Below, in pieces: positions 14,598-29,821 of a stretch of DNA of 64,000 nucleotides. The DNA is taken from contig CAVVKN010000010.1 in assembly GCA_963748825.1 (NCBI GenBank), positions 1 to 64,000 of the forward strand, read 5' to 3'. Made by a program: the position numbers and the translations under genes. The DNA comes from Methanotrichaceae archaeon. Its GTDB lineage: Archaea > Halobacteriota > Methanosarcinia > Methanotrichales > Methanotrichaceae. Within the stretch, counting starts at the first letter, position 1. Every line of letters begins with the position of its first letter. Under the pieces are notes generated by a model. The model was not told where the DNA came from and searched no databases. It was given only the letters and a program-made list of their open reading frames with translations.

Positions 14598-14817
14598 GGA
14601 GATTGGTTAGATTGTAGAGTCCTGATTCCGAACGGACGCGAAATAATTTCAGGACTCCACGCCTTTCCTCATTACGGATGGGATTCTTGATAGCAGGAGA
14701 GGATAATCGAAATGATAGTCTGTCCACACCCCACTACCGTATTCAAGAGTGACCTTTCTTACTTAGTCGTGCCCACAGATAGGTGGCATCATCCTTTTCG
14801 GAAAGGTCTTCCTCACT

Positions 14818-15210
14818 TCAAAAATGTATCCCGGCACCGCTCAATTTCCGGCGAATGTTCCTGATGGCCACCAGGCCAAGGCCATTAGAGCCGAACTTCT
14901 CCTGCCATTGATCCAAAGTCATTAGAGCATTTCCATTGGCCTCTCTGATCTGGTAGAATCCCCTGCCATACATGGTAATGATCATTTCTATGCTGTTGGT
15001 GTTCATCGTGACGCCAATAATGATATCGTCGGCCATCAGCTCTGATGTCTTTTTCTCTACAGATCCTTCATCTGATTCCGCATCGAGAACCGTCCAAGAT
15101 TTAGCCAGCTTCTCAGGTCCCCAGTTCGGTATCATCGAATAGCCACCGAGAGGCAAATCATAGCCTGGCCCAGTGTACTTACAGATCCCACTTAGCCAAT
15201 TTTCAGTCAT
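14818..15210 (-). CDS. Hypothetical protein
   Basis: 130-aa ORF with GGTGA ribosome-binding site upstream of ATG; no recognised motif. Confidence 0.6.
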   Translation of the reverse strand: MTENWLSGICKYTGPGYDLPLGGYSMIPNWGPEKLAKSWTVLDAESDEGSVEKKTSELMADDIIIGVTMNTNSIEMIITMYGRGFYQIREANGNALMTLDQWQEKFGSNGLGLVAIRNIRRKLSGAGIHF

Positions 15211-25725: not shown

Positions 25726-27374
25726 CCTGACCTCCCCATGATTTAGGCATATTTAAACAATTTTCGTTATCTATAGCCGAAATCTATAAATAATATTATG
25801 TGCATAAATATGCACATGAAATCGTTTAATCGAATAAAAAATATAAGTGGAATTGAATACATATACAAAATCACTCCTTACTACGACAAAGAAAAGAAGA
25901 AAATTCGCCAGAAGAGCAAGTACCTCGGCAAGAATGTTAATGGAGTTCCTGTCAAGGTCCGATCTCAGGGAAAAATACCAAAGAAAGTTCTATCACATGG
26001 CGAATTCGTTCCACTGAAAAAGATAACAGAAGACCTTAAACTAGACGAAATTCTCTCTGGAGTCTTGCCCAGCAAAGAAGTCTGGCCTGTTTTAACTCTG
26101 GCTATGAATTTTGCTTTGCGTCCCCGAGCATTAACCCATATCCAAAGCTGGTATGAAGGCACAATTCTATCGGAAGACCATCCTGATCTTCCCCTATCCT
26201 CTCAGAGCCTTTCTCGAATGCTAAGCCGTATCGGTGAGAGCACCGCGAATCTGGAATTCGCTCATCGACTAATCCAAAGAATCTCAACATGCAGCACTCT
26301 GGTTTATGATATCACTTCTTTGTCCTCTTACTCTCAAAACATAGGCCTACTGGAATACGGTTATAATCGAGATGGTCTCGATCTGCCTCAGATCAACCTG
26401 TCTCTGATTGTGGACAAGGATCTAGGCATACCGGTAATGTATGATCTATATCCAGGAAGCATCTCGGATGTAACTACCCTCACGAATACAGTCAAAAAAA
26501 TAAAGGCCCTGGGTGTTCAGAATTATACTATGATCATGGATCGTGGTTTCTTCTCGACTGCCAATATCCATGAGATGGTCTCAGCGGATTTGTCGTTCAT
26601 CATCCCCCCAACAAGTACTCTCAAAAATGTCAAAGAGGCGATATCCGCCATCCATAGCAGCATCGATGATCCTGAGAATTTGGAACTCTACGAGAAAGAA
26701 CCGCTTTTTGTCATGCCTGTGGACATCGAGGTAGGCAAAAACAAGCTGAAAGGATACGCATATTACGATCAGAAGCGAGAGCAGTTGGAACGAAGTACTC
26801 TCTATAAGCGGCTATACGATTTAATGGAACGGCTCAAGGCTGTGACCTTAAAGAGCTGGATGATTCCGAGTGTGGTTTTCAGGGAAACGGCAAAAAAGGA
26901 TGCCAAGTTCATCGAATGGAAAGCAATTGACGGAAAATTTGAGGTCTCCCTCAGAAAAAATGCCGTCTCTCAGGCCATCAATAAGATGGGTAAGTTTATT
27001 CTGCTGTATCGGGGCGAGTTTTCTTGGAATGATTGTCTTTCACTTTACAGAAGCAAGGATGTCGTCGAGAAAGGATTCGATGTATTGAAGAACGACATTG
27101 AACTGATGCCAACAAACCTAAGAACCAATAACAGTTTGAGTGGCTATCTGTTCGTCGCTTTTCTTGCTCTGATCTTAAGAATGAAGCTGACCAGGCTCAT
27201 GGTCAATGCCGAGCTGAATAAACGATATTCAGTGGAAGGACTGCTCACTGAACTAGAAAAGATCAAGCTAATGATCTTGCCGGATGGCGAGAAAATCACA
27301 ACTGAGATTACCAAGAAACAGCGAGAAATCCTGGATGCACTTCATATGTGTGCCTAAACTTTGGGGAGGTCAGG
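25726..27374 (+). mobile_element. IS1634-family insertion sequence
   Basis: Terminal IRs CCTGACCTCCCCATGATTTAGGCA / TGCCTAAACTTTGGGGAGGTCAGG; 6-bp target duplication TTCGAT at 25720-25725 and 27375-27380. Confidence 0.93.
25798..27357 (+). CDS. IS1634-family DDE transposase
   Basis: YDITS, YGYNRDG..LPQINL, MDRGF, YRSKDVVEKGF motifs; intact 519-aa ORF. Confidence 0.93.
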   Translation: MCINMHMKSFNRIKNISGIEYIYKITPYYDKEKKKIRQKSKYLGKNVNGVPVKVRSQGKIPKKVLSHGEFVPLKKITEDLKLDEILSGVLPSKEVWPVLTLAMNFALRPRALTHIQSWYEGTILSEDHPDLPLSSQSLSRMLSRIGESTANLEFAHRLIQRISTCSTLVYDITSLSSYSQNIGLLEYGYNRDGLDLPQINLSLIVDKDLGIPVMYDLYPGSISDVTTLTNTVKKIKALGVQNYTMIMDRGFFSTANIHEMVSADLSFIIPPTSTLKNVKEAISAIHSSIDDPENLELYEKEPLFVMPVDIEVGKNKLKGYAYYDQKREQLERSTLYKRLYDLMERLKAVTLKSWMIPSVVFRETAKKDAKFIEWKAIDGKFEVSLRKNAVSQAINKMGKFILLYRGEFSWNDCLSLYRSKDVVEKGFDVLKNDIELMPTNLRTNNSLSGYLFVAFLALILRMKLTRLMVNAELNKRYSVEGLLTELEKIKLMILPDGEKITTEITKKQREILDALHMCA

Positions 27375-27479
27375 TTCGATATGGGTGTCACTGAAAAGCC
27401 TATAAATACCTTGCTTCCTCAGGATTTACATCACCGCTATATGCCGCAATATTTAATTTCACAGGCCCCATATGGAATA

Positions 27480-28310
27480 ATGGGTGTAACGATGCCAGCC
27501 GCCGGAACAGACACCAAATCATTGAGCAATGCCTGGAAGAAAACCAATGAACAGGAACTCTTCAATAACCTGAAAATAGACTATGGCTTCTCTCAGGCTC
27601 TTGCCAGATCACTTGTACAGCTCATGCATGAGCATATCGAGACCAGCTATGGCAATCTCCGAGGAGACTCACAGGTCGTCTATCATGCAGTCAGTGTTCA
27701 AGAGGGTCCGGGAAAGTCATTAGACCACCTTCGTCTTGTACCGGTTACACTCACGATATCCCATCCTGATGATGCAAAGGTTCTGAAAGAACAGGGTGTT
27801 CCAGGCCTGCGCAAACACAAGCTCCTCAGATTTGCGAATGAAGCATATGATCAGGGCGGTCTTCTCATCCAGGAAGATCTCGCATTGCTCCTTACAACCT
27901 GCATCCGTACCATTCAAAGAGATATGCATGAGATGCGGCAGCAGGGTATCGTGGTTCCGACTCGTGGCGAGATCCAGGATATCGGACCGACCGTCTCCCA
28001 TAAAACGAAGATCATTGAGCTTTATCTCAAAGGATACGAATACACTGAGATCGAACAGAGAACTCGTCATACCGGGGAGTCCATCAAAAGGTACATCAGT
28101 GGATTCTCAAAGGTAGTTCTTCTCTCAGATCAGGGATACTCTATCTTCCAAATCCGAGAACTAACCAATTCTTCGGAAAAAGTCATCACTGAGTATCTCT
28201 CATTGTACGAGACCTATAAAGTGATCGGCTCTGATCGACTCGCACAGATCACCTCCACCTCGATTGAAAAGCTCGATTCGAAAAAAGGGGGTCTGGGGGT
28301 AAGACAATGA
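27480..28310 (+). CDS. DUF1670-like protein (copy A)
   Basis: EAYDQGGLLIQEDLALLL...TIQRD...PTRGEIQDIGPTVSHK...HTGESIKRY; start ATG 27480 or 27492 (upstream in-frame part belongs to the IS end and VRR-NUC remnant). Confidence 0.8.
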   Translation: MGVTMPAAGTDTKSLSNAWKKTNEQELFNNLKIDYGFSQALARSLVQLMHEHIETSYGNLRGDSQVVYHAVSVQEGPGKSLDHLRLVPVTLTISHPDDAKVLKEQGVPGLRKHKLLRFANEAYDQGGLLIQEDLALLLTTCIRTIQRDMHEMRQQGIVVPTRGEIQDIGPTVSHKTKIIELYLKGYEYTEIEQRTRHTGESIKRYISGFSKVVLLSDQGYSIFQIRELTNSSEKVITEYLSLYETYKVIGSDRLAQITSTSIEKLDSKKGGLGVRQ

Positions 28311-29068
28311 CATCATCAGCTGCACCTCAAGGAAAGGGGATTCATGGTGCAATAAAGCACCTCCTGGAAGAACAATATGCATTTGTCGGCGGCGATCGTG
28401 TCCAGGACATGCTTATCGGAGATTTAATTAAGATTTTTCAGCAGTACTCGCGAGACCCATGGAATCTTGAAGTGGGACAGACACTCTGGTTCGCCGTTCA
28501 TATAGATGAAAAACCAGGTCCAGGGAAGACACTTGCCAAAATGAGAGTTGTTCCGACTATTCTCTCCTTAACACACGAGGAAGATAAGCAGATGCGAACC
28601 AATGGCTATTCCCATCAGGAAGTGAGGAGATATCGTGTGGCCAGAATGCTAAAGGAGGCATATGCTCAGAATGGAGTGCTAACACAAGCGGATGTTGCTG
28701 AATTGATTGGAGTGAGTGCCGGAACTATTGGCAAGGATATCAAAGCATATCAGACTGAGCAAGGCGTTATCTTGCCATATCGAGGAACTGTCCATGATAT
28801 CGGACCATCAATGACTCACAAGAAGGTAATTATCGCCAAGTTCCTACAGAATATTCCGACACCAGATATCGCACGTATGACACAGCATACAGAAGAAGCA
28901 TGTGATCGATATATCAAGGCATTCAAGAAAGTCAGTATGGTGCACGGGAAGATGAAGCCATTAGAGATCGCTCGAATTCTTGGGATGAGTGAGAGATTGG
29001 TAAATGAGTATATTGCACTTATCGAAGAGCAGAGAACTATTGAAGGAGAAGGTAATCATGTTAGCTGA
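28307..29068 (+). CDS. DUF1670-like protein (copy B)
   Basis: EAYAQNGVLTQADVAELI...TIGKD...PYRGTVHDIGPSMTHK...HTEEACDRY; ATGA overlap with copy A. Confidence 0.82.
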   Translation: MTSSAAPQGKGIHGAIKHLLEEQYAFVGGDRVQDMLIGDLIKIFQQYSRDPWNLEVGQTLWFAVHIDEKPGPGKTLAKMRVVPTILSLTHEEDKQMRTNGYSHQEVRRYRVARMLKEAYAQNGVLTQADVAELIGVSAGTIGKDIKAYQTEQGVILPYRGTVHDIGPSMTHKKVIIAKFLQNIPTPDIARMTQHTEEACDRYIKAFKKVSMVHGKMKPLEIARILGMSERLVNEYIALIEEQRTIEGEGNHVS

Positions 29069-29194
29069 ACAGATGTTTGGGGCAGGCGACATATGCCGTC
29101 ATTTTTGTAATCTGTATGGATACTGAAAACAATTCGTTTGGTATCTGGGAGATGAATCCCGCCGCGAAGTAACGGCGCGAGGAAGCAGGGTTGT

Positions 29195-29606
29195 GGTGAG
29201 CACGGCAGCGATCTGCAGCTTGGCATTTTAGGGCGCATAGGAGCTCTATCGACCATGCAGCATGGCTAAGTAGTAAGAATAATCCAATAATTTTCCATCA
29301 ATTAAATCAAGCTTTGCGAAAATAGAAAGTTAGGTGAGCACGGCAGCGCTCTGCAGCTTGGCCTTTTAGGGCGCATAGCAGCCCCATCGACCGTGCAGCA
29401 TGGCTAAGTGGTAATAGCAATCCAATAAATTCAAGCTTTGCTAAAATAGAAAGATTAGGTGAGCACGGCAGCGATCTGCAGCTTGGCCTTTTAGGGCGCA
29501 TAGCAGCCCCATCGACCGTGCAGCATGGCTAAGTGGTAATAGTAATCCAATAATTTCAAGCTTTGCGAAAATAGATAAATTAGGTGAGCACGGCAGCGAT
29601 CTACAG
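29195..29606 (-). repeat. Tandem array of three 125-138 bp units, each carrying a copy of the 5S rRNA 3' end
   Basis: GGTGAGCACGGCAGCG(A/C)TCT(G/A)CAG starts at 29195, 29333, 29458 and 29583 (the last is the real 5S end); intervening ~100 bp also conserved. Confidence 0.93.
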
Positions 29607-29712
29607 TTCCCGAGAGCTCGCGCATCTGAGTACAGTGCAGAACGTGGACAGGCTTATCTTCTGAGTTCGGAATGGGTTCAGGAGTTTCCCTGTCGCTCTG
29701 GCCGCCATGCTC
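29583..29712 (-). rRNA. rrf: 5S ribosomal RNA
   Basis: Minus strand GAGCATGGCGGCC...CCCATTCCGAAC...GATCGCTGCCGTGCTC with terminal helix pairing. Confidence 0.95.
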
Positions 29713-29821
29713 GATTCCAAGTACCGGAATCGAACCGGTTTAGTGCCTCCCCGGGCCGTAACCCGGGGTCTTGGGTTAAGTGCCTTAAGCTTTGCGACCA
29801 GATTTCGCCCGAGTTTAGTGG

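Follow-up and report, generated by a model that had tools for sequence, protein, structure and literature searches.

Tandem units ending in a copy of the 5S rRNA 3′ end behind the 5S genes of Methanothrix rRNA operons

Why should the 3′ end of a 5S rRNA gene recur several times directly behind that gene? The question is raised by an rRNA operon on the minus strand of the window analysed here, which covers 64,000 nt (positions 1–64,000 of contig CAVVKN010000010.1, assembly GCA_963748825.1, Methanotrichaceae). The operon comprises a 16S rRNA gene (34507–33037), a tRNA gene between 16S and 23S (32915–32843), a 23S rRNA gene (32722–29820) and a 5S rRNA gene (29588–29709, feature span to 29710; Rfam RF00001, 89.6 bits), in whose fold helix I is formed by GCAUGGCGGC paired with GCUGCCGUGC.

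The array and its distribution

A search of the window with the 24-mer CTGCAGATCGCTGCCGTGCTCACC returned four minus-strand matches, with 1 (the real 5S end), 0, 1 and 0 mismatches, compared with a chance expectation of 0 matches over 100 dinucleotide shuffles. Relative to the real 5S end (CTGTAGATCGCTGCCGTGCTCACC, 29583–29606), the three further copies carry 1, 2 and 1 mismatches and are spaced at 125, 125 and 138 nt, exactly as reported in the preliminary description of this DNA. That description had equated the 24-mer with the end of 5S; the last 19 nt of the Rfam-defined gene are indeed included, but the final 5 nt (TCACC) are 3′ flank. Tandem Repeats Finder independently delimited a repeat of period 125 (2.5 copies, 94% matches, score 546).

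All parts of the array lie on the minus strand, and a T-rich, AT-rich spacer and a GC-rich segment can be seen in the sequence ahead of every copy, as first described. Spacer 1 (29537–29582) consists of TAA, the T-rich tract TTTATCTATTTT (about 29568–29579) and an AT-rich stretch containing CGCAAAGCTTGAAATTATTGG. It is followed by unit 1 (29455–29536, 82 nt; 109 bits with our covariance model R1), which folds into a stem with its 5′ strand GCACGGTCGAT at 29511–29521 and its 3′ strand at 29463–29475, enclosing a GGGGC/GCCCT hairpin (29506–29510 and 29493–29497), and which carries its 24-mer copy at 29458–29481. Spacer 2 (29412–29454), again a T-rich tract with an AT-rich stretch, leads to unit 2 (29330–29411, 82 nt; 107.9 bits), whose 24-mer copy (29333–29356) has GAGCG in place of GATCG. 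Spacer 3 (29274–29329) is 13 nt longer than spacers 1 and 2, which accounts for the spacing of 138 nt, and precedes unit 3 (29192–29273, 95.6 bits; 24-mer copy 29195–29218). This distal unit is the most diverged, in line with the original observation, with 74% identity over 125 nt (83% by BLAST), and is followed by unique sequence without a T-tract.

The array is genuine and belongs, as a lineage-specific feature, to the 3′ trailer of Methanothrix rRNA operons. The concern that a single true unit had been multiplied during assembly was not upheld: all four 5S loci of the source genome carry at least one unit, and arrays are also present in related genomes. The three units of the window are set apart from one another by substitutions and by an indel of 13 nt, differences of a kind that assembly does not create; the array is not an assembly artefact. 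The source genome (25 contigs, 2.88 Mb) has three units at the 5S locus of the window and a single unit at the remaining three loci each, and the covariance model, built from 40 units, finds 6 matches in it, all behind the four 5S genes. Two of the four rRNA operons of this genome (L003 on contig C5 and L004 on contig C18 of G000) are nearly identical for at least 650 nt past the unit, into a downstream gene, representing either a large duplicated segment or two assembly variants of one region.

Across the family, model matches were found in 41 of 105 genomes, many of which are fragmented and may have unassembled rRNA ends. These comprise 36 of 58 Methanothrix genomes and 2 of 3, 1 of 3 and 1 of 16 genomes of three sister genera, while the model detected no unit in the 12 remaining genera. 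BLAST matched 51 of 101 genomes, some of them through the 5S-derived end alone. Arrays contain 1–5 units and are nearly always positioned just behind 5S (roughly 50–90 nt behind it at the five sister-genus loci checked), with one to three units in the single-contig or few-contig genomes of the genus and five in a single array on contig L008. Among 30 5S loci from the whole class, the model matched 6 (five Methanothrix, one sister genus) and none of the nine that come from two other families. Two Methanothrix 5S loci (L191 and L211) are without units. A scan of the collection with a 16-mer gave almost only chance matches in unrelated bacteria, together with one related array (L064). A different way to repeat 5S was observed in several genomes of a neighbouring family, which have tandem pairs of complete 5S genes with start-to-start distances of about 210–620 nt; in L215 (G112 contig C1), one of the nine loci, a second complete gene supplies the later 5S-like end (genes at 13–134 and 438–559), and such pairs also occur in G110, G159, G127 and G147.

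The surroundings of the arrays include mobile DNA. In the window, a region adjoining the array (25726–29068) contains a DDE_Tnp_1 transposase gene (25798–27357, plus), the left end of which recurs at 99% identity on contigs C6 and C3. Downstream of it, two DUF1670 paralogues carrying helix-turn-helix domains (27348–28310 and 28307–29068, plus) converge on the array end, the last ending about 120 nt from unit 3. A boundary of an insertion sequence at the array itself was considered and rejected, with no link to the array found: the sequence from unit 3 to the DUF1670 genes occurs in one copy, and repetition is confined to the left end of the transposase region. In G049 (L153, 1099–1516), a HicA/HicB toxin-antitoxin pair is located between two units on the opposite strand, flanked by partial copies of the unit 5′ part (CCATGCNGCA), and transposase genes (IS110 family, rve and DDE) follow further on, together with one inverted unit. 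Inserted cassettes and transposases beside arrays thus mark the region behind the rRNA operons as a place of DNA insertion too.

Orphan units, defined by 8 model matches in five loci lacking 5S or 23S, also occur, one of these loci beginning at a contig end where 5S may have been cut off. From their gene context, the orphan loci L162 and L164, from two species, look like the same site, where the units follow an acetyl-CoA hydrolase/transferase gene and share its strand. Another orphan locus lies behind a pair of TIR-domain genes, and in 2 of the 5 loci the units run against the orientation of the flanking genes.

Unit structure and relation to 5S rRNA

Behind 5S or a previous unit, the order of elements is TAA with a T-rich tract, an AT-rich spacer and a conserved core of ~80 nt (CUUAGCCAUGCUGCACGGUCGAUGGGGCUGCUAUGCGCCCUAAAAGGCCAAGCUGCAGAUCGCUGCCGUGCUCACCUAA). 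The AT-rich spacer is of at least three sequence types across species, the type in the window containing CGCAAAGCTTGA. The commonest type elsewhere has a conserved palindrome, GGAGCU-NNN-AGCUCC, after the T-tract and ahead of the following unit (e.g. L012:1582–1637, L014, L024 and L028), which is absent from the spacers of the window. Aligning 40 units left 12 columns without any variation, and conservation reached 90% or more in a further 34. The core has an outer stem of 7 bp, with a 3′ strand GCCGUGC that belongs to the 5S-end copy and a 5′ strand GCACGGU, and an inner hairpin of 5 bp (xGGGC/GCCCy) with the conserved loop CUAUGC, followed by a variable linker. In some units ATGCTGCAYGG is duplicated internally, its two copies enclosing a 20-nt insert that contains a small hairpin (ATGACGGTTTCCGTTTAACG; L010:1603–1775, L013:183–360 and L031:580–755).

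The preliminary description had proposed that GCACGGUCGAU pairs with AUCG(CU)GCCGUGC of the 5S-end copy around a GGGC/GCCC hairpin. Minimum free energy folds contain this stem and hairpin in units 1 and 3, but unit 2 folds differently. The single units are no more stable than their own shuffles (z −0.51, −0.94 and −0.10), the RNAalifold consensus is weak (−2.97), and the 40-unit alignment, which was not fitted to the model, has 86.0% of cells paired compared with 84.1% in shuffles, with slight covariation (4 double-change pairs versus 3.5). A wider alignment of 89 matches (82 distinct units), including diverged units and other genera, was fitted to the structure of the model and so favours that structure; in it, 81.0% of cells pair among the 82 distinct units, compared with 78.6% in shuffles, both sides have changed in 13 of 16 pairs (6.7 ± 1.4 in shuffles) and 35 further pair types occur (25.6 in shuffles), none of 500 shuffles reaching any of these three values. 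Counts of pairs and of pair types are, however, measures rated as rarely misleading by the analysis tool itself. The covariation score for the same units is 0.150, compared with 0.111 in shuffles and at most 0.059 in slid controls.

This signal is unevenly distributed over the structure. The outer stem is paired in 87.3% of cells, with compensatory changes in 6 of its 7 pairs, and the inner hairpin in 84.2%, with a closing pair that varies between G-U, C-G, A-U and U-G, whereas a 4-bp inner extension (CGAU/AUCG) is paired in only 66.5%; half of the units have GAGAG in place of GAUCG. A sister-genus unit has the compensated stem GUGUGGC/GCCAUAU, and a diverged unit has a GAUUAGU/ACUAAU stem (10 of 11 pairs) of which the 3′ strand is no longer 5S-like. 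In G066, the units keep GCACGG/CCGUGC while the helix of its own 5S is AUAUGG/CCAUAU, and the unit stem is therefore kept for its own sake rather than as a mere copy. The covariation check on the 82 distinct units thus bore out that stem and hairpin are conserved through compensatory changes; taken as evidence for folding, this comparison of sequences gives a mixed picture, in which both elements appear to be maintained as pairs.

Other candidate pairings did not hold. A third hairpin in the linker is present in some variants only and not in the commonest one, which includes the units of the window (median z 0.13 over 67 linkers), with some compensatory changes where it does form (GCGGC/GCCGC versus GCAGC/GCUGC). 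The 5′ strand of the unit showed no preference for the upstream 5S end over its own 3′ strand, its own being better in 24 of 56 units, the upstream one in 12 and both equal in 20, with some of the upstream sites picked for this comparison being spurious. A pairing between the leader GCCAUGC and the start of 5S was rejected as well: in genomes in which 5S begins with AUAUGG or UAUGG, inspection by eye revealed no matching changes.

How much of 5S is retained in a unit? The likeness to 5S rRNA (RF00001) consists of an identical 3′ strand and flank, a terminal stem that resembles helix I and an order of stem, hairpin and linker that recalls a cut-down three-way junction; the units differ in having neither the helix II/III arm nor loop C, and in obtaining no score from the 5S model. 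An Rfam search of 29150–29590 gave no family at E ≤ 10, neither 5S nor tRNA, and the units stay short of the gathering score of 38 bits of RF00001, a model with helices I–V and loops A–E. An origin of the whole unit from 5S did not gain support, and the GC-rich segment may, as first described, be without 5S ancestry: beyond the 24-mer, local alignment of the remainder of the unit with the remainder of 5S was no better than shuffles (p = 0.49), and similarity between the unit interior and the 5S tail was likewise not significant (p = 0.13). Two features are no more than suggestive of such an origin. The hexamer AUGCGC is common to the unit and 5S at nearly equal distance from the end, and L013:276–360 is a natural 5S/unit chimera, its 3′ 45 nt being 5S helix IV/V sequence in place of the usual unit interior. 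Elsewhere in the window (14745–14818, minus), Rfam matched the DUF3800-X RNA at 49.5 bits (gathering score 38.2).

Candidate roles and origins

The reading that we tentatively prefer, from sequence comparison, is that the units may be co-transcribed modules of the 3′ trailer, acting in series as stem-plus-U-tract modules for 3′-end formation or termination. RNA polymerase would reach them only by reading past a weak U-tract behind 5S, because the units have no promoter of their own. Each unit would then offer once more the terminal stem of the 5S type with CACCUAA and a U-tract, and the series could serve as back-up sites for termination or 3′-end formation of a heavily transcribed operon. Short, stable by-products protected by the stem and ending in ...GUGCUC(ACC) would result, and copy number would be expected to shift by unequal recombination between the 24-mer copies, as the A-B-A-B-A layout suggests.

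Several observations bear on this proposal. The outer stem is conserved by pairing, as detailed above, and the unit, like 5S, is usually followed by CACCUAA and a U-rich tract. TTTT is present within 25 nt downstream of 57 of 85 units, compared with 9.7% of random genomic 25-mers, and is missing behind the other 28; its usual form, TTTCTTTT, is also found behind a tRNA gene of the source genome. The U-tract begins a few nucleotides (UCACCUAA-type) past the stem rather than directly at it, and in three of the four operons of the source genome the last unit is directly followed by unrelated sequence without a T-tract. A further point counts against a plain terminator, which would need neither a conserved hairpin loop nor the 5′ leader CUUAGCCAUGCUGC.

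For the promoter search, a BRE/TATA matrix was trained on 39 regions lying ahead of tRNA genes in the source genome; 19 of these regions themselves reach at least 11 bits (11–16), and the two 16S promoter sites obtain 11.2 and 16.3 bits. No promoter-like site reaching 9 bits was found in any of 79 regions upstream of units across all genomes, and the mean best score there is 3.9 bits (3.4 in shuffles). The spacers of the window score 7.0 (spacer 1) and 7.7 bits, and CGCAAAGCTTGAAATTA, which looks promoter-like by eye, was rejected at only 7 bits, a score reached by about 1 in 1000 genomic positions. In the sequencing runs that matched, all stored as assembled contigs, about a fifth of the sampled words were found, essentially from the 5S part. 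In four of these runs, one RNA-library contig of 667 nt reaches from the 23S–5S spacer across 5S to a point 83 nt past it, inside unit 1, and two further contigs, of 127 nt each, lie on unit 1, all at low depth. In X14, depth is 3.5–12.7 over unit 1 compared with 16–65 over 5S, values to which DNA carry-over may contribute. Such assembled contigs, which give no readout of RNA starts or ends, neither show nor exclude transcription of the array.

Rather than serving as serial 3′-end modules, the units might be processed from read-through RNA into stable RNAs of 65–80 nt that act in trans as partial 5S mimics, the stem being trimmed like the 5S 3′ end and binding, for example, a factor that recognises helix I and the junction. 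We consider this unlikely, but it keeps some weight because the conserved loop and leader imply more than a hairpin: the loop CUAUGC, the leader and the 12 invariant columns suggest recognition of specific sequence, and stem, hairpin and variable third arm together resemble a small three-way junction. The orphan units away from rRNA genes, at seemingly the same locus in two species (L162 and L164), also point in this direction. Against it stand the absence of a promoter motif from all 79 upstream regions, the lack of the third arm in the commonest variant, that of the window included, and the failure of the Rfam 5S model to see the units even at E ≤ 10. A more specific version is distinctly speculative: the units would form a new "mini-5S" RNA family, freed by the machinery that finishes the 5S 3′ end and binding a 5S-recognising factor through mimicry of helix I and the junction, so that RNA level and factor availability would be tied to the escape of polymerase from the first terminator.

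The units could instead be products of recombination, either remnants of mobile DNA at the 5S 3′ end with att-like cores or a small selfish repeat, an explanation that we regard as improbable. The layout, in which each repeat ends exactly at a 24-mer copy, would fit it, as would the HicA/HicB cassette between units of G049 with its flanking partial 5′ copies, the internal ATGCTGCAYGG duplication of several units, the transposase genes that abut the arrays in the window and in G049, and the orphan units. However, no site-specific integrase or recombinase (tyrosine or serine) was found among 29 proteins flanking arrays and orphan units; the only mobile-DNA genes among them encode transposases (DDE_Tnp_1, rve and IS110 family), and the rest include the two DUF1670 proteins and ordinary genes. 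In some genomes units do bracket inserted cassettes, the HicAB pair of G049 among them. Compensatory stem changes would not be expected in decaying scars, and the units keep one orientation and their place behind 5S in all four genera. The preliminary description had offered small structured RNAs, tandem terminators and integration scars side by side; its structural component, a stem and hairpin with compensatory changes in the genus and three sister genera, has stood, while integration scars are disfavoured because no integrase lies nearby and scars would leave the selection for pairing unexplained.

Still more doubtful is a neutral account, in which the end of 5S was duplicated in tandem together with its flank and the functionless copies were homogenised by gene conversion among rRNA operons. 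The first units of the four operons of the source genome are 93–96% identical, and would accordingly have been homogenised along with their operons, and copy number varies from 0 to 5, including the unit-free loci L191 and L211. This account is opposed by the non-5S part of the unit, which has no other template in the genome (all 6 model matches are units), is nearly invariant within the genus and is recognisable in three other genera, whereas the variable hairpin of the 23S–5S spacer at the same loci has diverged beyond recognition; the compensatory stem changes also speak against it. Integration scars and neutral duplication are both less likely than the terminator and processed-RNA readings. 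A conserved reading frame in the units is not likely, because 125 nt, the period, is not divisible by three and units differ in length. That the units are a functional part of the operon is argued by a non-5S half without a genomic template, its near-invariance in the genus, the compensatory stems, the constant orientation behind 5S and the lack of a promoter.

Significance and comparison with known systems

Methanothrix species are among the most abundant acetate-using methane producers. To our knowledge, very little is known about how the 3′ ends of archaeal rRNA transcripts, and of 5S in particular, are finished and processed. A conserved, structured and lineage-specific element carrying the 5S end behind every rRNA operon would provide a handle on archaeal rRNA 3′-end formation, as it predicts specific RNA ends and an effect on termination. 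Genome annotation gains from it an RNA motif so far missing from the catalogues, and the array is a hot spot, beside rRNA operons, at which copy number changes and DNA is inserted.

Tandem terminators are familiar behind rRNA operons, as in bacterial rrnB T1/T2 and the repeated terminator boxes behind eukaryotic rDNA, and archaeal termination is known to need only U-tracts. The array shares with these systems the repetition of termination-type signals, here a stem and U-tract, behind a very strongly transcribed rRNA unit; it differs in that the repeats copy the end of the gene itself, and termination at them is a prediction.

A second comparison concerns the other side of the gene. In Haloferax, a tRNA-like element upstream of 5S is cut by tRNase Z, according to a passage of PMC3296008 citing Holzle et al. 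2008. As far as that passage describes it, the haloarchaeal element is likewise a mimic of a stable RNA that directs processing in the flank of an archaeal 5S gene, yet it lies 5′ of 5S and mimics tRNA, whereas the units described here lie 3′ and mimic 5S. The window has a T-arm-like sequence of its own (GGTTCGATTCC) upstream of 5S: in the 23S–5S spacer, CCGGTTCGATTCCGG (29724–29738, minus) looks like the T-arm and loop of a tRNA; a variable hairpin (29745–29768) lies ahead of it, and the spacer ends 13 nt after it, at the 5S 5′ end. The T-arm-like motif is kept in most related loci, the preceding hairpin varies, and the element resembles the haloarchaeal one cut by tRNase Z, to the extent that the passage portrays it.

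A full-text literature search, which covered a minority of subscription journals, turned up no account of repeats that follow an archaeal 5S gene. The closest parallel is bacterial. At the tyrT locus of Escherichia coli, the tRNA-Tyr gene is followed by tandem repeats, every one of which finishes with a copy of the 3′ end of the tRNA. The array has the make-up of such a 3′-end repeat: a stable-RNA gene is followed in tandem by units that finish with a copy of its own 3′ end, in an A-B-A-B layout that invites unequal recombination. It differs from tyrT in involving a 5S rRNA gene and an archaeon, in that its units hold a dedicated complement to the copied end, giving a conserved stem, and in the conservation of these units across a genus and its sister genera. 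The array is a 3′-end duplication array with an acquired conserved structure and a lineage-wide distribution.
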